Shown here: positions 11,900 through 47,512 of the stretch, in pieces
Position numbering within the stretch: the stretch's first letter is position 1
Layout of the letters: each line of letters begins with the position of its first letter
From: Candidatus Poribacteria bacterium
GTDB lineage: Bacteria > Poribacteria > WGA-4E > WGA-3G
Reading direction: 5' to 3'
Length of the DNA: 64,000 nt
Assembly (NCBI GenBank): GCA_965197475.1
Contig: CBDANF010000003.1
Span: forward strand, 1,856,001-1,920,000
The notes under the pieces: model-generated
Seen by the model: only the letters and a program-made list of their open reading frames with translations
What the model was told of the DNA's origin: nothing
The model's database searches: none
Translations under genes and position numbers: made by a program

Positions 11900-12004
11900 T
11901 TGTGTTATAGTGTCAGATGTATCGTCTCTATCACATCCTAAAGTTATTAAAAGTGCTAGTATAGCAACTAATAATATTGAGGTTTTTATCCCATTGAAGA
12001 ACAT
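11900..12004 (-). pseudogene. N-terminus of a lipoprotein gene truncated by IS3
   Basis: MFFNGIKTSILLVAILALLITLGC lipobox, then runs into the IS end. Confidence 0.6.
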
Positions 12005-12157
12005 AGCTATCTCTCCTATTATAAATCATAACAATGAGGAACAGCTGCCATTCCCCGAACAAAGCAAGCATAGATATGTCCGATAAAATAAAAAGTCAAT
12101 ATTCTGCATGCAGAATTCATGGTACTCGAATAGTACTTAAAATTACAGTACAAAATA

Positions 12158-12186
12158 TTGACAAAATTTAAAGAATATGATATACT
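12158..12186 (+). promoter_or_regulatory. Sigma70-type promoter
   Basis: TTGACA-17-TATACT with extended -10 TG. Confidence 0.65.
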
Positions 12187-12340
12187 TATAATGACGAGGA
12201 ATGGCAAACTGATCTTCAATGTTGTTTTCCTTAGTCTCAGGCAAGTTTGGCAATACCAGTACTAAACTTGTCAACCCGAAAATTAGACTCGTTGTGAGAA
12301 TCTTAAATGTGATGACTCACAACGAGTCATCAACACATCT

Positions 12341-12369
12341 ATTTTAACATAGCAACAATGCAATGTCAA
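12341..12369 (-). promoter_or_regulatory. Sigma70-type promoter convergent with 12158-12186
   Basis: TTGACA-17-TAAAAT with extended -10 TG. Confidence 0.65.
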
Positions 12370-12389
12370 ATAAAATTACGCTTTTTTAA

Positions 12390-12886
12390 TTAATACCTAA
12401 TATAGTTTTTACTATCCTTATCGTCCATAATTTGATCAAACAGTCCTAACTGCTTTGGACCTTGCTGGTTTTCCACGTATTCTTTCAGGACATCCAATGT
12501 CACGCCACCCGTAGATGATACAAATTTAGAAGGTGTCCACAAAGACCGAATACGCCTCAACCATCTAAACTCTCTCCGTAATGTGCGAGATGAATATCCT
12601 TTAATCTTTCCGATAATCTCTGTAACATTGAAATGCGGAGCAATTGACACTAACAGATGTATATGATCTGACATGGTCTCAATTGCGATGACTTCATAAT
12701 TATAATCCTCCTGTTTTTCTTCAATAATCTCTTTCAACCGATCTTGGATTTTAGGCGACAGCCACTTCTTACGATACTTAGTACACCAGATGATGGATAA
12801 TCACAGGCATGTACCGTATGATTGGCACGCTTGTATTCGTTCTTTGTTCGATTAGATTTTGTTTGATATGCATTTCTGTCACTCAT
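12390..12886 (-). pseudogene. tnpA: IS200/IS605 Y1 transposase TnpA with one frameshift
   Basis: DHIHLL HUH motif, LWTPSKFVSSTG, EYVENQ; restoring one base near 12797 gives YHIIWCTKYRKK. Confidence 0.88.
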
Positions 12887-12988
12887 AATTTCCTTCCCTT
12901 TAAAATCAGAAGTGTGAGAACGGTGAACGTCCCCACACACGATAAACCCTTGCCACAGTTGACACGGTTTCAGTTTTATTGTAATATA

Positions 12989-13232
12989 CGGAGTGCAAGT
13001 AAGTCGAAAAACAATAAACCACTTACCCGCACCCCTATGCAGGAAATCATAGACGATGAAAAGGGTCGTCTCATTCCTGCAATTCGGTAACGAAGTAATA
13101 GCAGGATTCAAGATGGCAATCAATGTGCCTGTTTACTCCTTACAAGTTCTAAATCGATCGTTTGACACACCACCGTGTGCCACCCGTCGACACGTTGACC
13201 TAATGTCAACACACGAACACACGTTTGTCAAA
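12989..13232 (-). ncRNA. Putative structured RNA upstream of tnpA
   Basis: Several long stems whose G-U pairs fit only the minus strand, e.g. GGGGTGCGGGTAAGT..ACTTACTTGCACTCC. Confidence 0.4.
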
Positions 13233-13438
13233 TCTATTTTCAATCTATTTTGGCTCGATGGAGGCAATGTCAGAAAGAGTTTATCTGTGGTAACTAATGC
13301 TGATAACTAATGTTTGATTTTTTGTTTTTCTTGATTTTTTCAACAAAAACGGTATACTAGCACTGGTTTATATTGGAATTTTTACCTCAATAAAAATATT
13401 GTATCAATGCAATATTCCACTCGTTATAAAAATACTGT

Positions 13439-14424
13439 GGCTCATGTAAAAAGTAAGTGCTATTTTTTCAAAGTTATGTTAGAGTGTTACCTATGGACTT
13501 TCCAATACAATCTCTCCTGGATGAAGAAAAAACTCAAGCGTGGGTGTTGGATCATTTCCACCTTCAAGGGCTGTGTTGCCCAAAATGCCAAGCGAGCGTG
13601 GCGGAGGCACGCAAGTTCCGTCCGACTGAAACAAGTGGTCTACAAGTGTATCGCTGCAAACACTGTGAGAGCATCTACAACCTCTATACCGGGACGGTCT
13701 TTGCTGGCACGCAGTTTCGTCCCTCACAGGTCGTTCTGCTTTTGCGCGGTGTCTGTCAAGGTGTTTCAAGTGCACAACTCGGGTGTGAACTGGGTCTAAG
13801 TCGTCAAACCGTTCTTTCTATAAGACGTAAACTCCAAACTTCGGCAGAGCAGATACAACCCGAAGCTGCTTTACCTGATGCTGAAGTCGAAACAGATGAG
13901 ATGTTTCAAAACGCCGGTGAAAAAGGCGATAAGCACGTTGATGCTTCGGATCCGCCGCGTCGGCGTGGCAATAAACGCAGGGGACATGGGACTTATGACA
14001 ATGATCGTCCGCCTATTGTTGGGACGAAAGGTCGCGAAAGCGGTCTCCTGAGATTACGTGTTGTGCGGCACACCGATTCTGCGACGCTTTCAACACACGT
14101 TCATCAGTGGACGTTGCCGACTTCAACGGTGTATACGGATGGTTGGCGTGGCTATAACCGTATTCAGCGCGCCCGTGAGATTGTTCTCCATAAGGATGGC
14201 GAGTGGGCAAGAGACGCAGACGGTGATGGTCTTTACGAGATCCATACAAGGACGATTGAAGGTGCCTGGACGACGCTGCGAAACTTCCTTCGTCCCTTTC
14301 GTGGCGTTCATAAAAAGTTCCTCGCCGGTTACGTCGCAATCTGTGAGTTCGTCATGAATCTAAAAGCTGTCAGTGTTGATTTTATAGCAAAACTTGTCAA
14401 AAGCACTTACTCTTGACATGAGCG
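13439..14424 (+). mobile_element. IS1595-family element A
   Basis: IRs GGCTCATGTAAAAAGTAAGTGC / GCACTTACTCTTGACATGAGCG. Confidence 0.9.
13493..14416 (+). CDS. IS1595-family transposase
   Basis: Zn ribbon CPKC..CKHC, HTH, ETDEM, YTDGW, TIEGAW. Confidence 0.9.
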   Translation: MDFPIQSLLDEEKTQAWVLDHFHLQGLCCPKCQASVAEARKFRPTETSGLQVYRCKHCESIYNLYTGTVFAGTQFRPSQVVLLLRGVCQGVSSAQLGCELGLSRQTVLSIRRKLQTSAEQIQPEAALPDAEVETDEMFQNAGEKGDKHVDASDPPRRRGNKRRGHGTYDNDRPPIVGTKGRESGLLRLRVVRHTDSATLSTHVHQWTLPTSTVYTDGWRGYNRIQRAREIVLHKDGEWARDADGDGLYEIHTRTIEGAWTTLRNFLRPFRGVHKKFLAGYVAICEFVMNLKAVSVDFIAKLVKSTYS

Positions 14425-14433
14425 AAGGGAAGT

Positions 14434-15418
14434 GGCTCATGTAAAAAGTAAGTGCTTTTTTCTTTCTTTCTGCTATAGTATAGCATATGGATTTTCCAAT
14501 ACTTTCTTTAATTGATGACGAACGCGCGGCGGAATGGTTGCTAAACCATTTCCATCCCCAGGGTTTACACTGTCCACATTGCGATGTGAGCGTGGCGGAG
14601 GCACGCTATTTTAGAACAACAAAAACAAGTCGCATAAAGGTTTACCGCTGTAAAGTATGTAAGGGTGTATATAACCTCTATAGTGGGACAGTGTTTGCTC
14701 AAAAACAGTATCGTCCTTCACAGGTAGTTCTGCTTTTGCAAGGTGTTTGCAAAGGTTTTTCTTCCGCTCAATTGGCACGCGAACTCAATATCAGTCGTCA
14801 AGCGGTGCTTTCCATACGGCGTGTGCTTCAGGCATCTGCCGAGATGATGCAACCTGAGGTAGCTTTGCCGGACACTGCAACAGAAACAGATGAGATGTTT
14901 CAAAACGCAGGTGAAAAAGGAGAACCGCATAAAGACCTGAAGGATCCACCGCGTCGGCGTGGTAATAAACGCAGAGGTCATGGCACTTATGCGAATGATC
15001 GTCCACCTATAGTCGGCACGATCGGGCGCAAAAGTAAGCGTGTCCGATTGCGTGTGGCACATCATACCGATAGTGCTACACTCTCATCACACGTGCATCA
15101 GTTCACGCTCCCCACTGCTACTGTATATACAGATGGATGGCGAGGCTATAATCGTATTGATCGTTCTCATGCGAGCGTGTGTCATGGTGATGGCGAATGG
15201 GCGAGGGATGACGATGCGGATGGTATTTTTGAAACCCATATCAACACGATTGAAGGTGTGTGGACAACGGTTCGTAACTTTCTCCGCCCATTTCGCGGTG
15301 TTCATAAAAAGTTCCTTTCGGGATATATCGCTATCTGTGAATTTGTTATTAATCTCAAATCTATTACTACTGAGTTTATATCACGACTCGTCCAACGCAC
15401 TCACTCATAACATGAGCC
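14434..15418 (+). mobile_element. IS1595-family element B (diverged tandem partner)
   Basis: Same IRL; IRR GCACTCACTCATAACATGAGCC; 9 bp downstream of element A. Confidence 0.9.
14487..15410 (+). CDS. IS1595-family transposase
   Basis: CPHC..CKVC, ETDEM, YTDGW, HINTIEGVW. Confidence 0.9.
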   Translation: MDFPILSLIDDERAAEWLLNHFHPQGLHCPHCDVSVAEARYFRTTKTSRIKVYRCKVCKGVYNLYSGTVFAQKQYRPSQVVLLLQGVCKGFSSAQLARELNISRQAVLSIRRVLQASAEMMQPEVALPDTATETDEMFQNAGEKGEPHKDLKDPPRRRGNKRRGHGTYANDRPPIVGTIGRKSKRVRLRVAHHTDSATLSSHVHQFTLPTATVYTDGWRGYNRIDRSHASVCHGDGEWARDDDADGIFETHINTIEGVWTTVRNFLRPFRGVHKKFLSGYIAICEFVINLKSITTEFISRLVQRTHS

Positions 15419-15464
15419 AACATCCTCTACAAAAATAGACAACACGTGTCACTCAAGATTTACT

Positions 15465-17582
15465 TTACCTTTCATTTGAAACAACCGGCACATCTTCTTT
15501 TTCAAGGATCGCATGCTTCACAGCTGGGAAAAACGGACTGTTAGAACTTATTGCCATCCATCTTTTCGAAAAGAATTCCATAGCAATGTGAACATTGGAA
15601 TCATTGGTAGACATATCACCTGATTCCTGTGATGGTATCCAATTTTCATAAGTAACTGGATCACCGTTGATCCATTGCAATGATGTGTTCTTTTGTGATG
15701 TTTTCAACCCAATCCAATAGAACAAGTTTTCAGCAAAACGTGCCTCTAACCATCTCTGTTCTGCTTCACTGTTAACACTAACAAGATATGCATCTTCTGC
15801 AGCAGCTTTAGTCTTTGCGTCATTCCAACTGTCGCACTGAATCTTTTTGTAAGCATGTCCATTTTCGGGGTTTACTGTCCACACCGCTTGTTGTTTTTTC
15901 ACCCGCTCATTCTGTTTTTTGCGATGTTTCTCCACATCTTTAAGTCTTAAGACCAGTTTATCGTAATGCTGTCCCTCTTTTAAACGAAACCATCTGGATT
16001 TTGCTGATGCGCCCTCATATCTCACCAACACCGAGTATTCTGCTGCCTCATCCAGTTGATTATACACGAAATAGCCTTGGGAATCAGTTTCAGCACCCCC
16101 GCTTGATGTTGATCTGCTTGAACCACTGGTAAAGAAAAGGAGGAAAGTATCTCGTATGCGTTGCCGAACGGTGAGTCGAATCCCCGCATTGGCAAGGGGT
16201 GTTCCATCCTTTAAAAGAACCCGTCCCCGAATTCGCATCGGCGCAGGTTTCACTGTGACGACTATGTTTTCAAGTGGCATACCCGGTTCAATAGCAAATG
16301 TGGGTTTGCCAAACCAGTTAGGTAAATTTCTATGAGATCCTTTGAAATAAAAAGTCATATCGCCGATTTCAAGGGTAACAATTTCAAAATCGGATCCCCC
16401 TTCAGGCAACATCACCAATTGTGATGGAACGGAATCAATGTTGGCAAAAGAAAAACCTCCTTGTTTATCAGTTTCGACTCGTTTCCAAGAAGATATAGGT
16501 GTGCAAGGGACCACATCATTATTTCGATTAAATTCTACCGGTTTAATTGTGAGTTCAAGCCCAGGAACAGCGTTTCCGTCTGTGTCTACAACCTTACCGG
16601 AAAGGGATGTAGTGCCTTTCTCTGTAATATTATCAGATTTTGAATCCTTTCTCGTATCTGTCTCTGCTGAGTTGACTAATTGTGCATCCGGTTTCTGTGC
16701 AGCATTGTTGTTTCTAATCGGAACATCCGAGTGTCCCGCCCGATTTCGCAACACGGGTTTCTCTGGAGAATCTACAATCTGTTGTGCATCTGTTATCTCA
16801 ACCGTCGGTTCGGATGTCGCGTCAAAACTATACGGTTTCTGAAAACGGTATAGATATTGCGCCCCCACACCCAGCAGTAAAAAAACTAAAATGGCAGAGG
16901 CACTCGAAACTAACCACGGAACCAGAGGTTTATTCCCAGACGGTGCTGCAGGTTTAAGATGTGATATTTCCTTCATAATATTCTCTGTTAATTGTATTGG
17001 CAATTGGAACCCACTAAGTATTTCTTGAATCATTGCTTCTTCCTTCCTTAATCGGTTGCGTGCGCGGTGAAGCCGACTCTTAACTGTGTTCGTTGATACG
17101 CCGAGAAATCTGCCAATCTCTTCACAACTCAAACTAGCAAGATAGTGAAGTGTAACCACTGTCCGATCGCTCTCTCGCAACTTGCTGAGCAGTTTATGAA
17201 CCACCGCGTAACGCTTTTCTTTTGTCACTTCCTCGCGCTGCCAAGACACGTATTCCGAGTAATATGCTTCCTCCAACTCAACAGGATCTGTTCCCTCTAA
17301 AGATTCTGGTTGGGGCTTTTTCTTTCGGTACCACGTGATACACTTGCGATTTGCGATGACATAGAGCCATCCCGCAAAGCAGTTGCGATTTTTGAGGGTC
17401 CCAAGTTTTTGATACGCAGTGATGAATACATCCTGAGTAATCTCTTGTGCAATGTGAAAATCACTGATCTTCTGCCATGCCAACGCGTGTATCTGATCTT
17501 GGTATTTTTCCACAAGTGCTGCGAAAGCATGCTGATCGCCTTCAAGGACGCGTTCAATCAACTCAGCATCACCGTGTTTCAT
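15465..17582 (-). CDS. ECF sigma factor fused to a TM helix, carboxypeptidase-regulatory-like domains and a C-type lectin-like domain
   Basis: Sigma2 (QDVFITAY..FAGWLY), sigma4 (EIGRFLGVSTNTVKSRLHRAR), hydrophobic TM segment, NGHAY..SWNDAK..YLVSVNSEAEQ..YWIGL..W..G..VTYENW. Confidence 0.88.
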   Translation of the reverse strand: MKHGDAELIERVLEGDQHAFAALVEKYQDQIHALAWQKISDFHIAQEITQDVFITAYQKLGTLKNRNCFAGWLYVIANRKCITWYRKKKPQPESLEGTDPVELEEAYYSEYVSWQREEVTKEKRYAVVHKLLSKLRESDRTVVTLHYLASLSCEEIGRFLGVSTNTVKSRLHRARNRLRKEEAMIQEILSGFQLPIQLTENIMKEISHLKPAAPSGNKPLVPWLVSSASAILVFLLLGVGAQYLYRFQKPYSFDATSEPTVEITDAQQIVDSPEKPVLRNRAGHSDVPIRNNNAAQKPDAQLVNSAETDTRKDSKSDNITEKGTTSLSGKVVDTDGNAVPGLELTIKPVEFNRNNDVVPCTPISSWKRVETDKQGGFSFANIDSVPSQLVMLPEGGSDFEIVTLEIGDMTFYFKGSHRNLPNWFGKPTFAIEPGMPLENIVVTVKPAPMRIRGRVLLKDGTPLANAGIRLTVRQRIRDTFLLFFTSGSSRSTSSGGAETDSQGYFVYNQLDEAAEYSVLVRYEGASAKSRWFRLKEGQHYDKLVLRLKDVEKHRKKQNERVKKQQAVWTVNPENGHAYKKIQCDSWNDAKTKAAAEDAYLVSVNSEAEQRWLEARFAENLFYWIGLKTSQKNTSLQWINGDPVTYENWIPSQESGDMSTNDSNVHIAMEFFSKRWMAISSNSPFFPAVKHAILEKEDVPVVSNER

Positions 17583-17812
17583 GGGACACCTCACAAACAG
17601 AATAATCTTTTAATTTATAGACGCGATTTTGAATTGGAAGGTTGCACTTTTGGAAATAAAACCAATATTTAAGGAAGAAGGTTCACCAAAATGATAACAT
17701 AAAGACGATCAACTGCCAATTTAAAATGACTATACTTTGGACATTTTTTAGTGTTTTATCTGAAAGCTTGGTTTATTCAACCTCTTAGACATTAAGACAA
17801 GCTCATCCTTAT

Positions 17813-38923: not shown

Positions 38924-41900
38924 TCAATTGGTAGACATTTGCACAAAACTTGAATATTCTGGTGGAATGGAATTTTTCAACGCATCTAACATTTGAATGT
39001 AACGTTCTCTGTCGTTTGCATTCTTGCTTGCATCAACGACTTGTTTCCAAAAATAGTCCAATGAAGAATTAGCAGATATGATACTTAAAGCGTATTTGTA
39101 GTATCTTAAAGCATCATCATAGAGTTCATTCGTAATATACGCATGTCCAAGTGTCATGGGGTAGTAATAACTCGTCCCCGTATCCCCTTGTAACGCACGT
39201 TTCGCATATTTTAGTGTTGTTTCTGGAAAGAGTCCTCTTTCAAGAAGTTCTTCAGCAAACCAACGTTGGTAATATGCACTCTGTCCGTTGACCTCTTTCT
39301 GTCGAAGTTTCAACCACTTAGCGTTGGCAATTTCAGCTTTATCGGAATCACCTATTTTATTGTAGAGATCCCCTAATATTTTGTGCAGGACCACACTCTC
39401 CTGCATTTTAGGTTCTATTTCTTCAAGGATAGCAACGAGTTTGTGCTCTTGTCCTTCGTTAGCGTAAAGTTCGTAGATAGCGCGAATTAATGAATTATGG
39501 GTAACTTGTCTGAAAGGTGCGTCTAATGCTTGCATATATACCGCTTCAGCATCAGAAATCTGGTTCTGTTTTATATATAGATTTGCTATCTTATTGTAGG
39601 ATTGGTATATTCTTGGCTCAAGTTCTATGACTTTTTCATAATAGGCTACTGCTTTTGTCAAGTACTCATTTTCTAAATTTGCCAAAATTGGACGGGTGTA
39701 AGGTTCAAGTTTGGCATTTCCAATGAGTTTGCCATCATTTTTATTCGGCGAACTATCGGAAATGCGTCCCTCCGTTTCTACGTCAAATTTCCAATATCCG
39801 ACCAAACCGGATTCATCTCCCTTCAACTGCTTGTTCATATCGGAACGAATCTGATTTTCTGTGCGCGCGATGTCCCAAATCCGCACTTCATCAATTAGTC
39901 CAGCAAAAGATGCGTGCTCAGATATTTCTTCTTCATGTGAACAACCGATGCGGAATGGCAGTGTGGTTTTACGTAAATTGTTCTGAAGTTTAAAGTTATT
40001 TCTTTGGACTTCAGAACCGTTGAGATATAACTTCATGATGTCATTTTTAGCATCAATGGTTCCCGCAACATGGTACCATTTATTTTTTTCAATCGTATTT
40101 GGCGGAGACCAAATAAATTTTTGTGGATGTCCGCCCGGGGATACATTAAAGAGAATTTTGCCTTCATCAAACAACCAAAGTGTGAATTGACGATGCGAAA
40201 TGTCCGGAATCCGTTTGTCACCTTTGAATAACACAGTCGTATAGGTGTTTAGAAAATCTGTGGGTTTGATCCATGCAGAAATCGTAACTTGTTCGGAGAT
40301 ATTGTTAATGATCTCGCTGTCCACGATTTCGACGTAACTCCCATTTCCGTCTAAGTTTAGTGCTTTGCTTTCTATGACATCTACCTTACGATCCACTCTT
40401 TGCAACAGATCACCCAACTTTATGTACCACCAGGCATTTTCAGGTTGCAGTTTAGTAAGTTTTTGATACTGCTCAATTGCTTGTTTAATTTTATCTGTGG
40501 CTTCATAACTTTCAGCAAGTTGCAAGATTAGGTTGGGATCGTTTGGGTTCATCTCAACCTTCTTCAGTTGTTCTGGTATCCATTTTTCATAGAGTTTTCC
40601 TTCTTTGGCGATTTCACGGATTGCATTTTTTGCCCTATTTCGTGTGGCTGATTCCTGATATATATCATAAGCTTCTACGTAACGTTTTGTCTCACGGTAA
40701 CTTTTGGCAAGCATTTCGCGCAAAGTATCTTGAATCCTACTATTTGTATCGCTATCACTCTTATCAATCGCGGATTTGGATAGTTCAATTGCCGGTTCAT
40801 ACATCCTATTTTCAATGCAGATTGTTGCGAGCGCGCCAAGAAACCACACATTATCTTTTTCGCTATAGGATGCAAGTGCCTGTTTAGCTTGTTTGAGCAT
40901 CTCTTTGGCTAATTCAGGCTGTTTGTTTTTTTTCAATGCAGCCGCAGCATAATAGAAATAACGGACATCGTTAGATTCTGCTTTGCCAAGTGCTTCATAC
41001 ATTTCAGCAGATTTTTGATAATCCTTTTCATCCCAATATATTTTCGCCAATATTGTTCGTGCTACAGGATTCTCTTTATTTTCTCTAAGTTTACCTTCAT
41101 AATGTGTTTTTAACACTTCAAGTTTATCTTGGCTCTTGAAAGCACCAATCAATGAATCGCGTGCAGTCTCCAATTTGTATATCACTGTAATTCTTGCCGA
41201 AGTAAAGGACCTTCGTTTGCTGTTTGTATTCGAATTCGCCTCTGTTTCATAGGGTTCTATTACTGTGTCCATTTCACCGAGTTCCACATATACCTTGAGT
41301 AATTCCGCAGATATTTTTTCTTTCTCATAAGAACTAGTTGTCATAACGAGTGCACGCCTGTAGGCATTAACTGATTTTTCCAATTCGTCATTTTTGTAAA
41401 AGTATTCTGCACGTACTTTCTGCATCTCGAATGTGATTGTACCATCATCTTCTGCCTTTTGTAACTTCTCTTCTAAATTCCCATAATAACGATAGAAATT
41501 GAGCAATTGTCGTTCAATACTTTGCCTGTCCGAATCTGATGTGGAGGATAGAATGGCATTCTTCAATGCTAATTCAGCAGCATCTACGTCCTCATTGAAA
41601 AAATATAGTTTTGCAAGTTTGAGATATGTGTGTTTATCATCTTGTTCTAATTCAATAACTTTTTCATAGTTGGCGATGGCTGCGTCTACATTATCTTCGG
41701 CTGCATAAAGTTTTGCGAGTCGTGCGTAATGGACACCAACTTCCGGCTCCGCTTGGATATATGACTGAGCGAGTTCAAGTGCCTCGTTACGTTTGCCGGC
41801 AGCTTGTAAACTATTAATAAGCGCATCTTGATACTTTGTGTTTTCTGGGTCAACTTCAAGTAGTTTGCTCCAGGTTTGAGCAGCTTTTTCGTGCTGATTT

Positions 41901-42157
41901 ATGCGTGAGTAGAGTGTTGCAAGTTGTACACGATATTCAAAATCTTCAGGTAGCACTTTGACAATTCGTTCGTAGATTTCTATTGCTTTCTCTATTTGGT
42001 TTTGCTTCACGAATTCCTCTGCTTTTTTGACGAATTCTTGTACCATCACACGCTTTTCTTCGGTGCTCACCTCTTGGGATTCAAGTTGTGCAACGAAAGT
42101 AATAACTGAGATTAACATGAGAATGACTAAGAAAAAAGACAATTTTGATCGTGCCAT
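38924..42157 (-). CDS. Secreted TPR-repeat + LamG domain protein
   Basis: Signal peptide, TPR helices, TISAWIKP..WYHVAG..GLIDEVRIWD..GLVGYWKFD. Confidence 0.9.
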   Translation of the reverse strand: MARSKLSFFLVILMLISVITFVAQLESQEVSTEEKRVMVQEFVKKAEEFVKQNQIEKAIEIYERIVKVLPEDFEYRVQLATLYSRINQHEKAAQTWSKLLEVDPENTKYQDALINSLQAAGKRNEALELAQSYIQAEPEVGVHYARLAKLYAAEDNVDAAIANYEKVIELEQDDKHTYLKLAKLYFFNEDVDAAELALKNAILSSTSDSDRQSIERQLLNFYRYYGNLEEKLQKAEDDGTITFEMQKVRAEYFYKNDELEKSVNAYRRALVMTTSSYEKEKISAELLKVYVELGEMDTVIEPYETEANSNTNSKRRSFTSARITVIYKLETARDSLIGAFKSQDKLEVLKTHYEGKLRENKENPVARTILAKIYWDEKDYQKSAEMYEALGKAESNDVRYFYYAAAALKKNKQPELAKEMLKQAKQALASYSEKDNVWFLGALATICIENRMYEPAIELSKSAIDKSDSDTNSRIQDTLREMLAKSYRETKRYVEAYDIYQESATRNRAKNAIREIAKEGKLYEKWIPEQLKKVEMNPNDPNLILQLAESYEATDKIKQAIEQYQKLTKLQPENAWWYIKLGDLLQRVDRKVDVIESKALNLDGNGSYVEIVDSEIINNISEQVTISAWIKPTDFLNTYTTVLFKGDKRIPDISHRQFTLWLFDEGKILFNVSPGGHPQKFIWSPPNTIEKNKWYHVAGTIDAKNDIMKLYLNGSEVQRNNFKLQNNLRKTTLPFRIGCSHEEEISEHASFAGLIDEVRIWDIARTENQIRSDMNKQLKGDESGLVGYWKFDVETEGRISDSSPNKNDGKLIGNAKLEPYTRPILANLENEYLTKAVAYYEKVIELEPRIYQSYNKIANLYIKQNQISDAEAVYMQALDAPFRQVTHNSLIRAIYELYANEGQEHKLVAILEEIEPKMQESVVLHKILGDLYNKIGDSDKAEIANAKWLKLRQKEVNGQSAYYQRWFAEELLERGLFPETTLKYAKRALQGDTGTSYYYPMTLGHAYITNELYDDALRYYKYALSIISANSSLDYFWKQVVDASKNANDRERYIQMLDALKNSIPPEYSSFVQMSTN

Positions 42158-42261
42158 TGAAATATATCTCCTATACTGCTACTGTGTTCATTATAAATAA
42201 ATGTGGTTCATAATTATAGTTTGAAAAAGTAAGGATAATTGGTATCCTTTGATTAAACATA

Positions 42262-42742
42262 ACGTGAGTTTGATATATGGCACATTCTAAAAATATGCGG
42301 ACATTTTCGTAGGGGTTAGGTTGCCTAACCCCTATGGGCGAGGGGAGCTCGCCCCATTAGCGTCAATTTAGGGGTCCCCAACCCGGTAGGTGCGGTTTGC
42401 AACCGCACCGGAACTTATGGAATAAACCCTCTTTAGTCCCGTAGGGACGCAATGTTTATAGAAAACGTGGTACCCCCAATCTCTTCAGCCCCGTCCGGGC
42501 GGAATGTTTATAGCAATGGGTTACCAATCCGGATATGTCGCTCGAATGGAACTAAAGAGATGTGCCTAAACGAGGTACTATAAACATATTGTCCGGACGG
42601 GACTGAATATAAGACAGTTTCAATCCTCATGCATATTGAGGAGCGTTCATAAAAACACAGATATTTCTTAAATTGACGCCTATGGGCGAGGGGACCTCGC
42701 CCCTACGAGAAGCACGAAGTCTCGTTTTTACCAAACTCACGT
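42262..42742. mobile_element. IS982-like MITE containing a nested MITE and several REPs
   Basis: TIR ACGTGAGTTTG..CAAACTCACGT; TSD TAAACATA; inner IR GCGTCAATTTA..TAAATTGACGC; GTAG hairpins. Confidence 0.8.
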
Positions 42743-42770
42743 TAAACATAAACATCAAGGAAATCCAAAT

Positions 42771-43224
42771 GTGACTGCTTCCCACGCTAAAGCGTGAGGT
42801 TTCAACGTGCCGTGCTATTTCGGTTGGGTTCTTGGACAACTCTAAGGTTGCTTCCCGACTTTTGCGAAGTTTCGTCTGGCTTTTTCAGCGTCCAGAAACT
42901 TCATCGGGCGACACAACAGCAATATGTTGCGGGACCAGCCAACGTCCGACTACGGTATAAACAAATATTCTCACGGAATGGACCGATACTTTAGTGCTTT
43001 GGCGTTCTGTCTCTATCGCGGTTGTGTCCGTGTTGGTTTCCTCCACAATCTCTAAAATGCGATTTCAGAACTCATCACAAACAACTGGAGGATCATAACC
43101 TCCGACAACTCATAGGTCTGATTTGTGGTATTGTTGACTTTATCAACATCAACTCTGTCCAAGCAATTGGATTGGATAGGACATTAGCAAGGATGCTAAT
43201 GATTGCTTTCCTATCCAGTTGACA
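42771..43224 (-). ncRNA. Putative ~450-nt structured RNA inside the IS608-type element
   Basis: Promoter at 43230-43258; many stems with minus-strand G-U pairs; no ORF. Confidence 0.5.
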
Positions 43225-43229
43225 TATAT

Positions 43230-43258
43230 ATTATACCATATATCTTGAATGAAATCAA
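43230..43258 (-). promoter_or_regulatory. Sigma70-type promoter inside the element
   Basis: TTGATT-17-TATAAT with extended -10 TG. Confidence 0.65.
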
Positions 43259-43351
43259 CGATTTTTAGGGAGACGTTAGCGGTGTTTCATCCCCGCCTTA
43301 AAAGGCGAGACTTTCACACCGAATATTTGGTAATATCCTGACATAGATGAT

Positions 43352-43503
43352 TATACCAATTCTGATAAATAAAACACCATTACGGAGATTTTATAACATT
43401 TTGAAACTCATCTCATCTCTTGCTGAATGTCCGAGGCGCAATGAATTGCGCGACTACGAACGCTAATTTGGTAATGAGAAGTTTTCGTTCAGAAATGGTA
43501 TTA
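43352..43503. mobile_element. MITE (TATACC ends) with an internal REP
   Basis: TATACCAATTCTGA..TCAGAAATGGTATTA; same REP as 17813-17927. Confidence 0.65.
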
Positions 43504-43569
43504 CATATAAAAACCGTCTTTCAATAATATGATTTATGGACCACCCGCAAATTATTTGAGTAAGAAATT

Positions 43570-46500
43570 TTAATTGGTGTCAGACACTTCGTTAATATGC
43601 AAATCTTCATAAGGTTTTCCATCAGTATCAGTAACTCGCAGATAAAATCCACAGGTCTTTTCCTCATTGCAAACCTTGACAAGAATGGTGTTTTTGCCTG
43701 CTTTGAGAGTAACAGGAATTATGTCTCTATCAAGACTGATACTTTTATCCTGAGTATTTGCGAATATCTCTATACCATTTAGCCATATTTTACCTTGGTC
43801 GTCACTGTCAAAACGGAATTGCACCTTCCGTTCATCAGGAGAGGTTACAGTTGCCCATGCATAGGAAACACGCCAATTAGTGTCACTACCGAAATCAATG
43901 AAACCATTGAAAGTATCATCAGACAATTTTTTCCAACTTATCTGTTCATTCACACCTTCATATTGTCCAGTTAGGTCTATCTGCGTTGTGTCTTCGAGGA
44001 TGTATTCCGTATTGAATCCGACTCCTCCTGTGTTGTCAAATGGTCCGAGAGTTAGCCAAGCATTCTCAGCAATCATACCAGTTTGTTGCATCTGTTCCAT
44101 TGCTTTATCGTACATGTTGTTTTTACTATAATATTCAGCTAAACCGAGTTTGACAATTATTCGGTTAACATTTATCCGAAAACCTGAATATGTTGGTGGA
44201 ATGGAATTTGCCAACGTATCAAGCATTTTATAATAACGTCCTTTGTCGTTAACCCTATTTCCTGCGTCAGTGATTTTTCCCCAGAAATTATCAAATGAAT
44301 ACTCACTGGAAATGACACTGAAGGTATGTTTGTATAGTTTAAGTGCCTCATCATAAAGCCCATTGGCGATACATGCACGTCCAAGCATTTCAGGGAAGCC
44401 AGGGTCTGAATAACTATTTTTTATATATGCGCGTTTCGCTAATTTTAGTGCTGTTTCTGGAAAAAGTTCTTTATCAAGGAGCTCGTTAACAAAATAAAGA
44501 TATTGGTATGTACTCTGTTGTCTATTGAGAGCTTTCTGCCGAATTTGCAACCATTTGGCGTAAGCAATTTCAGCTTTGTCAGTATCACCTACTTTTTTAT
44601 AGAAGTCACCTAAAAGTTTGTGCAGGACAGCACTTTCATCCATTGTCGGTTTGATCTCTTCAAGGAAAGCGATGCGTTTGTTTTCTTGCCCTTCGTCAGC
44701 ATAAAGTGCGGAAATAGCACGCATTGCCGAATCGTGTTCACTCTGTTTAAGGGGCGCGTCCAACGCTTGACGATACGCCGCCTCCGCTTGTGAAGGCTGC
44801 ACGGCTTTTATATAGGTTTTTGCCAATAGGTCGTAGAGTTGGTATGAAGAAGGTTTAAGCTCAACCGCTATTTCGTAAGCCGATATCGACTTCGCTAAAT
44901 GTTCAGATTTCAAACTCTCAAAAATTGGACGGGTGTAAGGTTCAAGTTTGGCATTTCCGATGAGATTGCCATTGTTTTTGTTAGGCGAAGTATCAACGAT
45001 TTTGCCTTCCGTTTCTTCGTCAAATTTCCAATATCCGACTAAACCGGGTTCATCTCCATTCAACTGCTTGTTCATATCGGCACTTATCTCATCTTCAGTG
45101 CGTGCGATATTCCAGATACGCACCTCATCAATTTGTCCGATAAAAGAGGTGGTTTGCACCTGGTCTTTGATATGAGTAACTCCTATACGCAGTGGAAGAC
45201 GACATTTAACGAAACGATCTTTTCCATTATAGTGTCTATGACCAAATTCATGCCCATTAACGAAAATCTTCATGTAATCCTTCTTCGCATCGATGACACC
45301 GGCAATGTGAGTCCATGTGTTTAATTTTATGAGACCCGGCGGAGAATAAAGGGATGCATACCCTCCATCTTCAGGTGACGAAGAAATTTTGAGTTTCCCA
45401 TCCGACCTAATAACAAGGATGTAACTTCGTTGCCTATAATTTTGTTTTTGCTCATCACTTCTGAAGACAATACGTACATAATTATTTGGGAAACTGGTTG
45501 GTTTTATCCAAGCAGACACCGTCACTTGATCCGTAATGTTGTTTAGAGACTCGCTGTCACCGATTTCAACGAAACTCCCATTTCCACTAAGTGTAAGCGC
45601 AGTGCCTTCAACTACTTCACCTGTTTCACGTCTCTCTGGCGGTATATTTTGATAGAGGTCACCAAGTTTTTTGTACCACTGCAAGTCTTCTGGCTCAAGT
45701 TCGGCGAGTCTTTCATATTGCGCAATCGCTTCTTTAATTTTGTCGGTGGCTTCGTAACTTTCGGCAAGTTTCAAGATGGGTTTGGGATCGTTAGGATTCT
45801 CCTCAACCTTCTTCAATTGTTCTGGTATCCACTTTTCATAAAGTTTTCCGACTTTGGCGATTTTCTTCATTTCAGTTTTTGCTCTTCCTCGCTCGTAGTT
45901 ATCGTCAGCAACGTTTGCCATCTGCTGATATGCCGTAAAAGCCTCTTCATAGCGTTTTGCGCCGTGGTAACTTTTCGCAAGAATCGCATAAAAATACTCC
46001 AATCCCCAACTGTTATCTTTACTCTCCTTTTTAGTGACAGCGTTATCAGCGAGTTTAATAGCCGGGTCATACATTTCACTTTCAAGACAGATTGTGGCAA
46101 TTGCCCCGAGGAATGACGAGTCTCGTTTAAATTTGCTGGATGCAAGTGCTGTATCGGCTTCGTTCAATACCGCTTTCACCATGTCAGACTGGTTACTTTT
46201 ATGGAAGGCAGCAGCAGCATAGTAAAAGCTGCGAATATTGCTCGGTTCTGCTTTGCTAAGCATGCGGTATGCTTCAGCAGCTTTTTGATAATCGCTGGCT
46301 TCCCAATAAATCTCAGCGAGTATTTCAATGATAGCAGGATTGTCAGCATCTTTTTCAAGTTTACCTTCAAAAAGGGTTCTCAATACCTCAAGTTCTCCTT
46401 GACTTTTATAGGCATTTATCAAAGTTTTACGTGTGTCATCGCTACCGAAATCGAATGTAATACCGGATGAACCGAAAGACGTTGAGACGTGTTCTGATCT

Positions 46501-47427
46501 GGATTGCTTTGATGCTTCAGCCACGTAGGATTCTAATACTAAGTCTCTCCTGCCTTGTTTGATGTGAACCGCGATCAATTCTTCAGCCACAAAATTTCGC
46601 TCATAAGGATCAGGGGCCATTTCGAGTGCTTTCTTAAAGGCATCAGCAGATTTTTTCAATTCGCTAGTATTGAGAAAGTGTCGTGCACGTTCTTTTTGCA
46701 TCTCGAATGTGATTGTGCCATCATCTGCAGCCTTTTGTAACATCTCTTCTAAATTCCCCTGATAACGATAGAGGTTGACCAATTGCTGTTCAATACTTTG
46801 CCGATCCCATTCTGATGTGGTGTGTAGAATGGCGTTCTTCAATGCTTTTTCAGCACCATCTATGTCCTCATTGACAAAATAAAATTCTGTGAGTTTGAGA
46901 TACGTTTGTTCATCGCCGTATGCTAATTCAATTGCTTTTTCATAGTTAGCGATGGCGGCATTTACGTTATCTTCGTCGGCATAAAGTTTGGCGAGCCGTG
47001 CGTAATGGACACCAACTTCCGGCTGCGTTTGGGTATATGCTTGCGCGAGTTCGAATGCCTCGTTACGTTTGCCGGCAGCTTGTAAACTATTAACGAGTTT
47101 ATCTTGATACTTAATGTTTTCTGGGTCAGTTTCAAGTAGTTCGCTCCAGATTTGAGAAGCTTTTTCGTGCTGATTTATGCGTGAGTAGAGTGTTGCAAGT
47201 CGCACACGATATTCAAAATCTTCAGGTAGTGCTTTGACAATTCGTTCGTAGATTTCTATTGCTTTCTCTATTTGGTTTTGCTTCACGAATTCCTCTGCTT
47301 TTTTGACGAATTCTTGTACCATCACACGCTTTTCTTCGGTGTTTTGGGCTTTAAGTCCTGCCATGAAAGTACCCACTGTGATTAACATTAAAATGACTAA
47401 GAAGAAATACAATTTTGATCGTGACAT
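43570..47427 (-). CDS. Secreted TPR-repeat + LamG protein with an extra C-terminal beta domain
   Basis: Paralog of 38924-42157; C-terminal WLTLGPFDN..DSDDQGKIWLNG..LKAGKNTILVKV. Confidence 0.9.
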   Translation of the reverse strand: MSRSKLYFFLVILMLITVGTFMAGLKAQNTEEKRVMVQEFVKKAEEFVKQNQIEKAIEIYERIVKALPEDFEYRVRLATLYSRINQHEKASQIWSELLETDPENIKYQDKLVNSLQAAGKRNEAFELAQAYTQTQPEVGVHYARLAKLYADEDNVNAAIANYEKAIELAYGDEQTYLKLTEFYFVNEDIDGAEKALKNAILHTTSEWDRQSIEQQLVNLYRYQGNLEEMLQKAADDGTITFEMQKERARHFLNTSELKKSADAFKKALEMAPDPYERNFVAEELIAVHIKQGRRDLVLESYVAEASKQSRSEHVSTSFGSSGITFDFGSDDTRKTLINAYKSQGELEVLRTLFEGKLEKDADNPAIIEILAEIYWEASDYQKAAEAYRMLSKAEPSNIRSFYYAAAAFHKSNQSDMVKAVLNEADTALASSKFKRDSSFLGAIATICLESEMYDPAIKLADNAVTKKESKDNSWGLEYFYAILAKSYHGAKRYEEAFTAYQQMANVADDNYERGRAKTEMKKIAKVGKLYEKWIPEQLKKVEENPNDPKPILKLAESYEATDKIKEAIAQYERLAELEPEDLQWYKKLGDLYQNIPPERRETGEVVEGTALTLSGNGSFVEIGDSESLNNITDQVTVSAWIKPTSFPNNYVRIVFRSDEQKQNYRQRSYILVIRSDGKLKISSSPEDGGYASLYSPPGLIKLNTWTHIAGVIDAKKDYMKIFVNGHEFGHRHYNGKDRFVKCRLPLRIGVTHIKDQVQTTSFIGQIDEVRIWNIARTEDEISADMNKQLNGDEPGLVGYWKFDEETEGKIVDTSPNKNNGNLIGNAKLEPYTRPIFESLKSEHLAKSISAYEIAVELKPSSYQLYDLLAKTYIKAVQPSQAEAAYRQALDAPLKQSEHDSAMRAISALYADEGQENKRIAFLEEIKPTMDESAVLHKLLGDFYKKVGDTDKAEIAYAKWLQIRQKALNRQQSTYQYLYFVNELLDKELFPETALKLAKRAYIKNSYSDPGFPEMLGRACIANGLYDEALKLYKHTFSVISSEYSFDNFWGKITDAGNRVNDKGRYYKMLDTLANSIPPTYSGFRINVNRIIVKLGLAEYYSKNNMYDKAMEQMQQTGMIAENAWLTLGPFDNTGGVGFNTEYILEDTTQIDLTGQYEGVNEQISWKKLSDDTFNGFIDFGSDTNWRVSYAWATVTSPDERKVQFRFDSDDQGKIWLNGIEIFANTQDKSISLDRDIIPVTLKAGKNTILVKVCNEEKTCGFYLRVTDTDGKPYEDLHINEVSDTN

Positions 47428-47512
47428 TGAAATATACCGCCTATTAAGGTTATAGTTATATCTTTGATCTTTTCCACTACGTCTTTCGGTTTTCATTTTT
47501 CTGTCTGTTGTT

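Follow-up and report, generated by a model that had tools for sequence, protein, structure and literature searches.

A protein-less IS200/IS605-type element of Candidatus Poribacteria that probably carries a stand-alone TnpB-type guide RNA

The window analysed here is a stretch of 64,000 nucleotides from a Candidatus Poribacteria bacterium (assembly GCA_965197475.1, contig CBDANF010000003.1, positions 1,856,001 to 1,920,000). At window positions 42771..43329, on the minus strand, it carries a 559-bp element of IS200/IS605 type without a conserved open reading frame (ORF), and the interior of this element holds an RNA of ~460 nt whose structure has been kept through compensatory changes. We put a probability of roughly 0.6 on the reading that the element, non-autonomous and protein-less, derives from an IS200/IS605 element of the TnpB-only, IS1341-like kind with TTAC as its target, and is a 'stand-alone omega-RNA' element resembling the palindrome-associated transposable elements (PATEs). 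An earlier sequence-only reading of the window had proposed an ORF-less IS200/IS605-type element inserted after TTAC, and this was borne out by empty sites, by the hairpin ends and by the lack of a conserved ORF.

Comparison with orthologous empty sites identified the element as a discrete insertion. It sits in a 1.4-kb gap between two TPR/Laminin_G_3 genes (47496..43570 and 42157..38924), and the orthologous gaps of genomes G020 (locus L140) and G003 (L141) have flanks 95-97% identical to those of the window and precisely lack the element. These sites read ...CAGGATATTAC|ATTTGGATTTCCTTGATGTT..., that is, ...TTAC|ATTTGG..., where the window has 559 bp between TTAC (43333-43330) and ATTTGG (from 42770), without a target-site duplication; read further, they give ...CAGGATATTAC|ATTTGGATTTCCTTGATGTTTATGTTTAA|TCAAAGG.... 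The limits 42771-43329 proposed from the sequence alone agree exactly with the empty sites of both genomes. The register is ambiguous by 1 nt, because a C borders both joints; since relatives end in ...GTCA plus one subfamily-specific base, ...TCAC is favoured as the last four bases. As in IS200/IS605 elements generally, insertion took place 3' of a specific tetranucleotide without duplication. This target tetranucleotide, TTAC (43330..43333, minus strand), lies directly 5' of the insertion and is a candidate target-adjacent motif (TAM) for a TnpB-type nuclease. The flank ATTTGGATTTCCTTGATGTT (42751..42770, minus strand) directly follows TTAC in the empty sites, and ATTTGGATTTCC... beside TTAC has, in sequence layout, the arrangement of a TAM and its target; by the layout of TnpB omega-RNAs, the same flank is the candidate guide segment if transcription passes the right end.

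Both ends are organized as in the IS200/IS605 family. The left end (43272..43329, minus strand) reads CAAATATT-CGGTGT-GAAAG-[TCTCGCCTTTTAAGGCGGGG]-ATGAA-ACACCG, its outer arms CGGTGT/ACACCG enclosing AAAG (43314-43311) and, immediately after it, the hairpin TCTCGCCTTTTAAGGCGGGG (43310-43291). The right end reads GAAA-[CCTCACGCTTTAGCGTGGG]-AAGCAGTCAC, with the hairpin CCTCACGCTTTAGCGTGGG at 42799-42781 followed by ...GCAGTCAC and the terminal TCAC at 42771..42774 (minus strand), where the empty site and the family-wide ...GTCA plus one base place the cleavage site. The TTAC target, AAAG, the left hairpin and the GAAA-hairpin-TCAC right end could all be read as the sequence-only reading had described them. 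Imperfect subterminal hairpins are present at both ends, on one strand, and there are no terminal inverted repeats, again as in IS200/IS605; such hairpins are common to the tnpA and tnpB elements L145, L147, L017, L163 and L045. The IS608 element of Helicobacter pylori likewise inserts 3' of TTAC without target duplication, has AAAG 5' of its left hairpin and bears subterminal hairpins. It encodes tnpA and tnpB, however, and its right end terminates in TCAA, whereas the present family ends in TCAC, TCAT or TCAG and has neither gene.

These end sequences are kept across the family. Every one of 49 distinct full-length copies ends in ...GTCA plus one subfamily-specific base, and TTAC precedes 25 of the 27 distinct full-length copies with a left arm GTGTGAA(A/G)G or GTTTGAAAG. 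Copies with a CAAAA-type left arm follow other words, for example TTTAT. In IS608, recognition of the target falls to the bases 5' of the left hairpin, and by analogy the pairing of arm type and target fits that rule. The left end of the window copy is 77-84% identical to those of the TnpB-only elements L017, L020 and L022, that of L163 is closely similar by eye, and the left-end hairpin core recurs in L145, which carries tnpA, and in L045, which carries tnpB. The resemblance to L017 takes in the promoter region, its left end being 84% identical to ORF-less copies over ~115 nt.

Copies checked for a transposase or accessory gene had no ORF of at least 80 aa, as expected of a non-autonomous IS200/IS605 element. 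In 11 copies sampled from 32 aligned ones, the longest ORFs (25-85 aa) differed in frame and position, and no conserved ORF was seen. A small peptide starting in a conserved loop, GTTATGATCC, was considered and rejected: other subfamilies have GTG or ACG in place of its ATG, and the frames that follow are not the same. When three and then four TnpBs were compared by tblastn with the element and 37 copies, the best matches inside the elements had E values of 0.3-1, and good ones (E ~1e-6) occurred only in the flanks of L039 and L079, where the copy lies inside tnpB.

By contrast with this protein-level search, comparison of nucleotides tied the 3' part of the element to tnpB. The 3' ~220-290 nt of the RNA is homologous to the RNA region at the tnpB 3' end of TTAC-targeting TnpB-only elements in the same genus: in nhmmer searches, the hidden Markov model (HMM) of the family matched L017 (E 4e-11), L164 (E 5e-11) and L163 (E 5e-5), over model positions 226-365, 208-367 and 168-365 of 434, respectively. 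L017 and L164 are TnpBs by Pfam; L017 and L163 are TnpB-only elements inserted after TTAC. A covariance model, R2, built from 18 ORF-less copies only (129 positions) and searched in 40 genomes, found matches directly 3' of the part of tnpB coding for the zinc ribbon (TNB) in G017 (65 bits), G021 (64 bits) and G062 (40 bits), and in four G003 copies (33 bits), besides further matches of 124-125 nt in other genomes. The window copy matches R2 as a divergent member at 42991..42872 (28.4 bits, E 6e-7 in 851 nt). With the R2 and nhmmer matches, the scaffold-like part extends from AAGTATC to the right end (domains D3-D4, 42775..42991, minus strand), with hairpins that include CCCGA[GAAGTTTC..GAAACTTC]TCGGG and the right-end hairpin (42799-42781). 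Like a TnpB omega-RNA, it is homologous to the RNA of a tnpB 3' end and ends at the right end of the element. Together with the common left ends, the HMM and R2 homology indicates that the 3' half is, by descent of its sequence, a TnpB-type omega-RNA scaffold and that the family derives from TnpB-only elements.

The relation of the right end to TnpB omega-RNAs had been anticipated in the sequence-only reading. That it recognised no tnpB remnant stands at the protein level; at the nucleotide level, roughly the final half of the RNA can be aligned with the 3' end of tnpB in relatives and with the sequence downstream of that gene. That reading had also named an interior of decayed tnpB as the observation that would speak against it. 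The interior does align, but only over the part that doubles as omega-RNA, and this part covaries as RNA, which argues for a retained guide-RNA scaffold rather than decayed coding sequence. The parent-type elements L017, L164 and L163 share with the family the TTAC target, closely similar left ends (L017, L163) and the RNA region AAAGTATC...TAGTCG...TTGGC...GCTATAAGC... before the right-end hairpin. They differ in having a tnpB of 408-434 aa (Pfam OrfB_IS605 and TNB) and a different leader sequence, in lacking one hairpin of the ORF-less 3' part, and in ending with ..AGTATGTCA. An omega-RNA of the IscB/IsrB type (HEARO), which lies upstream of iscB or isrB and takes a 5' guide from the left flank, was rejected: Rfam gave no match, and with a promoter positioned inside the left end the 5' flank would not be transcribed. 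An RRXRR protein turned up at a single distant locus, L021, where the match was a hairpin of 46 nt.

Covariation supports the RNA as a whole. RNAalifold was applied to 32 aligned RNAs, each running from the -10 box as far as the right end, and found compensatory changes in 27 of 63 pairs. In a curated structure of 72 pairs, 94.4% of cells were paired (85.5% in shuffled alignments, 33-45% with the partners slid), and two-sided changes occurred in 34 pairs, compared with 20.8±2.1 after shuffling (none of 500 shuffles reached 34) and 8-11 with slid partners. The covariation score was 0.287 versus 0.129 (shuffled) and up to 0.088 (slid); related sequences can exceed shuffles without constraint, and the slid-partner control keeps the relatedness. 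The window copy alone had a minimum free energy z-score of -3.43. The strand is fixed by G-U pairs, for instance 257:291 (GC in 17 sequences, GU in 15).

Most of the stems predicted by the sequence-only reading, along with its use of G-U pairs to fix the strand and its expectation of covariation, were upheld by these data. Compensatory changes were found in the stems TGGATAGGA/TCCTATCCA and CATTAGCA/TGCTAATG, in the AAGCAAT/ATTGCTT pseudoknot and in the CGCAACA/TGTTGTG stem. For CCCGA[GAAGTTTC..GAAACTTC]TCGGG the agreement comes from reading the sequences themselves, type-II copies having CTGGG..CCCAG and GAGTTTTC..GAAAACTC in its place. The stem CCACAA..TTGTGG had to be given up: it shows no compensating changes and each half has another, covarying partner, CCACAAA pairing with TTTGTG at 43080-43075 and ATTGTG with CACAAC. 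Both of these helices belong to the middle stems (D2, 42992..43123, minus strand; helices 6-9 of the RNAalifold and pair-count analyses). D2 consists of CCACAAA/TTTGTG around a GGAGG-TTATGAT-CCTCC hairpin, whose loop is the conserved GTTATGATCC, and then a nested three-part stem (GTTCTG/CAGAAC, TCGC/GCGA, ATTGTG/CACAAC). This 3' nested stem aligns just inside the 3' end of tnpB in L163, and the 5' part of D2 had no match in any TnpB locus examined.

Upstream of these structures lies a sigma-70-type promoter, TTGATT-17-TATAAT with an upstream TG (43230..43258, minus strand; 10 of 12 positions in the scan). It was the best of 8 promoter-like sites in 1.6 kb, and shuffled sequences gave 4.9±2.3, which makes the scan alone weak. 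A -10 box TG(G/T)TA(T/C)NNT keeps its offset in 33 of 37 extracted relatives (a right end was recognisable in 32 of the 37), and this conservation of position supports the promoter seen in the sequence-only reading. The element is present in metatranscriptome contigs from three studies, a presence that, for a multi-copy element with possible DNA carry-over, is not proof of transcription. Word depth was higher in the element than in the adjacent gene in 4 of 4 runs (for example ~1000 versus ~39 in X10), again in contigs of a multi-copy element. The libraries were used as assembled contigs, from which the start, end and strand of a transcript cannot be read. Contig pieces ending at 43333 and at 42770/42771 reflect the same element at other sites in those communities; uncovered stretches were given no weight.

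The window's genome contains one copy of a larger family. Interior matches (E<=1e-10) were found in 13 of 40 genomes of the genus, that genome included. G020 has two copies 96-97% identical to the window copy at other loci, one of them with its left end split by a 1.1-kb insertion; copies elsewhere and empty alleles, for both of which a search had been suggested by the sequence-only reading, are thus on record (empty at L140/L141). A 585-bp subfamily is represented in G003 by at least five copies, which share 98-99% identity with one another and ~71% with the window copy. Full-length relatives also occur in a sister genus (L229-L233), which makes this a multi-copy, ORF-less family of two Poribacteria genera. 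In a scan of 185,579 species genomes (one genome each) with an exact 19-nt conserved word, 56 loci were detected. The family HMM matched all 37 Poribacteria loci and 0 of the 19 others, which are about the number expected by chance; an exact word could miss distant relatives.

Two further features of individual copies were recorded. In G020, copies of different subfamilies (L023/L067 and L075) have the left end broken near the same place by the same foreign sequence; the insert of L023 is 1.1 kb long, encodes a 149-aa ORF without a Pfam match and has 8 element bases repeated at its joints, and may be another mobile element targeting the left end. Two ORF-less copies (G020:C1:2461652-2462706 and G062:C1:1997126-1997881) lie within ~300 bp downstream of the zinc-ribbon region of a tnpB on the same strand, and two more (L039, L079) lie inside tnpB in the opposite orientation; such placements may reflect a preference for, or a tolerance of, insertion beside other IS605 elements.

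Reportedly, Karvelis and Altae-Tran described in 2021 the layout of TnpB omega-RNAs, with the guide taken from the flank. In such RNAs the TAM equals the target motif of the transposon. On that model, the promoter just inside the left end would transcribe an RNA through the right end into the flank, and a TnpB from another element would bind the 3' scaffold, possibly trimming the 5' part. This TnpB would use ~16-20 bases of the flank (ATTTGGATTTCC...) as guide and cut element-free TTAC-ATTTGG... sites, at which recombinational repair would then restore the element. A Y1 transposase (TnpA) made elsewhere would move the element. It would in this way live at the expense of its relatives' TnpB and TnpA alike, with the 5' ~235 nt standing in place of the tnpB ORF. 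Guidance of a TnpB and mobility by a TnpA, both supplied in trans, are somewhat favoured on the strength of sequence comparison. Near-identical copies at different sites are consistent with such mobility, and relatives contain tnpA elements whose left hairpins have the same cores (L145 in G003, L147 in G062). Where ORF-less copies abound in a genome, so does tnpB: the TNB domain has 91 matches in G003, 87 in G020, 25 in G019, 21 in G062 and 14 in G021, with 1 above the cut-off in G000. The window itself has a Y1 (IS200-type) transposase gene at 12390..13123 on the minus strand (124 bits to PF01797), apparently split into ORFs 12734-13123 and 12390-12737; no ends like those of the element were found in its surroundings.

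Several observations weigh against a guide RNA that works with a TnpB in trans. A whole-genome R2 search of the window's genome gave no match at E<=0.001, and its single true tnpB element (L045) has the target TTAT-C and another right-end tail, no R2-type scaffold and no significant similarity to the RNA HMM (E 0.21). No matching TnpB scaffold or left end was found in that genome, and this, together with the single copy, makes the window copy probably an orphan, intact but idle. Its 28 bits on R2 compare with 100-145 for most ORF-less copies (type-II copies ~60-70) and ~60-65 for tnpB-linked matches. The commonest right-end tail of the family, ..AGCCGTCA, occurs at 57 sites in 11 of 40 genomes and was never found beside tnpB, as checked directly for the six otherwise unexplained sites. 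These proved to be copies, fragments or lone hairpins, with WD40, PD40 and DDE-transposase ORFs as neighbours. The search for TnpB elements with the same ends, proposed in the sequence-only reading, accordingly succeeded for the left end (closely similar in L017 and L163) and failed for the right end, an identical one being found on none. ORF-less copies and R2-type tnpB co-occur only loosely: G009 has 7 R2 matches with the size and score of tnpB-linked ones and no ORF-less copy, and the tnpB-linked R2 matches of G003 reach only 33 bits. The genomes compared are kin, and counts across them are not independent. Finally, the conserved, covarying 5' 235 nt is not explained by a guide-RNA role.

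This 5' part accounts for the length that had been noted as exceeding that of typical omega-RNAs: a leader module, D1, and extra stems precede the omega-RNA-like part. D1 (43124..43229, minus strand; ~105 nt) has a closing helix GTCAAC/GTTGAT around a stem P1 (GGATAGGA/TCCTATCC), a P2 hairpin and a small hairpin, whose loop AATTGCTT forms a pseudoknot with the P1/P2 internal loop AAGCAAT. Next comes another hairpin, GTTGAT/GTCAAC, which repeats the strands of the closing helix. The covariance model R1 scores 120 bits at the window copy. When 42 matches from different contexts were aligned, two-sided changes appeared in 32 of 36 pairs, compared with 19.7±1.8 in shuffles (0/500), and the pseudoknot, which lies outside the model, is 94% paired with two-sided changes in 6 of 7 pairs. 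D1 has no Rfam match. With R1, the module was detected in 18 of the 40 genus genomes and, across the phylum, in 47 of 151 sampled genomes (14/38, 27/56, 1/1 and 4/20 genomes by genus).

D1 occurs in three settings: in the ORF-less family, in other ORF-less IS605-like elements, and in leaders of cellular genes without transposon ends. In three sister-genus genomes (L221, L222, L224) it stands, with a promoter and without transposon ends, before a 384-aa TPR gene in the same context. It also precedes a PLD/helicase-like (PLD/ResIII/SNF2-like) gene at L189 (the same place as L014) and an unannotated 369-aa ORF at L191, and lies in front of a cellular gene at L190 (the same place as L018); before cellular genes it may be an exapted leader. 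A D1-like module heads five other ORF-less IS605-like elements (L193, L194, L202, L203 and L228), following the left-end hairpin and promoter, and the conserved RNA downstream of it is a different one (...GAGACCTTGTAAAACATC...), which suggests that several families of guide-RNA-like cargo exist in these genomes. Outside the window, the window's own genome has a weak D1-like match at L045, 831-938 (E 2e-5 in 62 kb, 35 bits); the only tnpB element of that genome lies ~400 nt upstream of this match.

The tnpB leaders of L017, L022, L045 and L163 (4 of 4 examined) have the same layout as D1 without sequence similarity: a 5' segment, a long hairpin and two tandem complementary copies, the second of which holds the start codon. 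The 5' segment can pair with either copy. From the sequence, this pairing looks like a translational gate on tnpB, and we infer that D1 is an elaborated version of such a leader. It could act as a stabiliser, a folding aid or a switch; together with the extra stems, it most likely serves expression, folding or stability of the RNA. A bolder view, which we entertain only tentatively, is that the 5' ~235 nt is a new functional RNA domain fused to an omega-RNA, and D1 an undescribed regulatory or stabilising class of Poribacteria RNA that is used and spread by transposons. If so, transposons would rely on D1 for producing guide RNA independently of a tnpB mRNA, or for gating guide RNA by alternative pairing, and would seed D1 as leaders of cellular genes.

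The use of D1 outside the family also underlies the first of the alternatives to the guide-RNA reading, a mobile promoter-and-leader cassette in which outward transcription is what is selected. Promoter and D1 would drive or regulate the downstream gene, here the TPR/LamG gene 42157..38924 on the same strand, and the omega-RNA-like part would be baggage for transposition or retention. The orientation of the element toward that gene agrees with this, as do the spread of D1 over 47/151 Poribacteria genomes, its place before cellular genes without transposon ends (L221, L222, L224, L189, L191) and at the head of ORF-less IS605-like families with unrelated downstream RNA. We nevertheless consider it unlikely: ~600 bp, including the second inserted element, separate the right end from the next start codon, copies stand in many unrelated contexts and orientations, the genes behind D1 have no evident common function, and the downstream 350 nt of RNA is kept by covariation for which a mere promoter cassette has no need. 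A functionless deletion relic, that is, a decaying tnpB element whose apparent structure was inherited from its parent, is a still weaker contender. It would account for the single copy and the invisible partner enzymes in the window's genome and for a 3' part derived from the tnpB-overlapping region, and kin sequences can beat shuffles without constraint. Decay is difficult to reconcile, however, with subfamilies 70-80% identical that keep their helices by two-sided changes (34 pairs, falling to 8-11 when partners are slid), with covariation in helices absent from TnpB elements (D1, helix 6), with a promoter retained across subfamilies, and with the recent amplification of several subfamilies (copies 98-99% identical).

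A decoy or competitor RNA would soak up the TnpB or TnpA of rival elements, damping or redirecting their activity instead of serving its own homing. Its abundance in tnpB-rich genomes would suit such a role, and so would a scaffold that is homologous to TnpB omega-RNAs but departs from them in its right-end tail and in an additional hairpin ahead of the one at the right end; given a layout (scaffold running to the right end, TTAC target) that suits a working guide RNA, we regard this as very improbable. Least probable of all is a self-acting ribozyme, an IStron-like group I intron or other catalytic RNA that splices or cleaves without protein, which the sequence-only reading had kept as an option. 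Size, the many helices and the pseudoknot might have pointed that way, and IStrons, in the sections of 10.1101/2023.11.20.567912 that concern them, join introns with IS605/IS607 ends. Against this, the 4227 Rfam models, including group I and II introns, HEARO and small ribozymes, gave no match at gathering level in the whole window, only chance-level matches at E<=10 on 42100-43700, and none at E<=1 on 10 relatives' loci that included tnpB elements. In group I splicing the 5' exon ends in U and the intron in G; here the junctions are TTAC| and ...TCAC|, so the upstream exon would end in C, and elements of the family end in C, T or G. The conserved internal promoter would moreover give a transcript without a 5' junction. 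With neither Rfam nor the ends in its favour, the group I intron or IStron option was rejected.

Next to the element, several features of the locus are of separate interest. A second, unrelated insertion of 479 bp lies at 42741..42263 (minus strand), 29 bp downstream of the element, with terminal inverted repeats CGTGAGTTTG.../...CAAACTCACG and a direct repeat TTATGTTTAA on both sides. It is likewise missing from the empty sites in G020 and G003, and many genomes of the genus contain repeats of its stretches 42686-42424 and 42355-42248. In the RNA libraries, summed contig depth was very high (up to ~12,000-17,800) at 42347-42440 and 43428-43474, stretches that presumably belong to other abundant repeats. 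The 5' end of the upstream TPR/LamG gene (43570-43990, the first ~400 nt) has 8-28 matches in each of the 40 genus genomes at 70-80% identity, which places the gene in a very large paralogous family.

Elements of this kind are already known, and the sequence-only reading's 'undescribed RNA system' was too strong a term. As far as the relevant passages of PMC10691335 go, stand-alone omega-RNAs, evidently mobilised and without effector or transposase, are found beside effector loci and act in trans; their biological role is there called unknown, and those of OMEGA systems are attributed to Altae-Tran et al. 2021. Meers et al. 2023 (PMC10055086) note in the corresponding passage that PATEs 'often encode omega-RNAs', for which TnpB has to come from other elements. 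The present element resembles the stand-alone omega-RNAs, as those passages of PMC10691335 describe them, in its IS200/IS605 ends, in having no effector or transposase gene, in the presence of effector-bearing loci in the same genomes, and in a guide expected from the flank with an effector in trans; it differs from that description in its own conserved promoter and in ~235 nt of extra covarying structure before the scaffold. With the PATEs of PMC10055086, as far as described there, it shares a minimal IS200/IS605 derivation, both ends, the absence of a protein gene and mobilisation in trans. Unlike PATEs, it resides in Candidatus Poribacteria and has a right-end tail of its own, not found on any tnpB element examined. 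At 559 bp and with a complex RNA, it also seems larger than PATEs. IStrons, according to the same sections of 10.1101/2023.11.20.567912, are alike in having a large structured RNA in the left part and an omega-RNA at the right end, whereas the present element has no group I signature in Rfam, an internal promoter and junction bases unsuited to splicing.

What is new is the self-promoted ~460-nt composite RNA, the front 235 nt of which (D1 and the extra stems) is a new structure. Among the titles and abstracts listed by literature searches, none concerns omega-RNA or PATE elements in Poribacteria or such a promoter-bearing composite, and PMC9956272 has no bearing on them; the supplements of Meers 2023 and Altae-Tran 2021 might list similar long forms. 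D1 is a strongly supported, unnamed structured RNA in about one-third of the sampled Poribacteria genomes and a candidate for a new cis-acting RNA motif. The family as a whole is a well-defined natural case: its boundaries are exact, empty sites are available, covariation is rich across many subfamilies, parent TnpB elements can be identified within the genus, and an added RNA domain has replaced the nuclease gene. It offers an RNA and candidate TnpBs with a TTAC TAM for the study of guide use in trans, and could reveal how guide-RNA genes persist by parasitising TnpB/TnpA elements.

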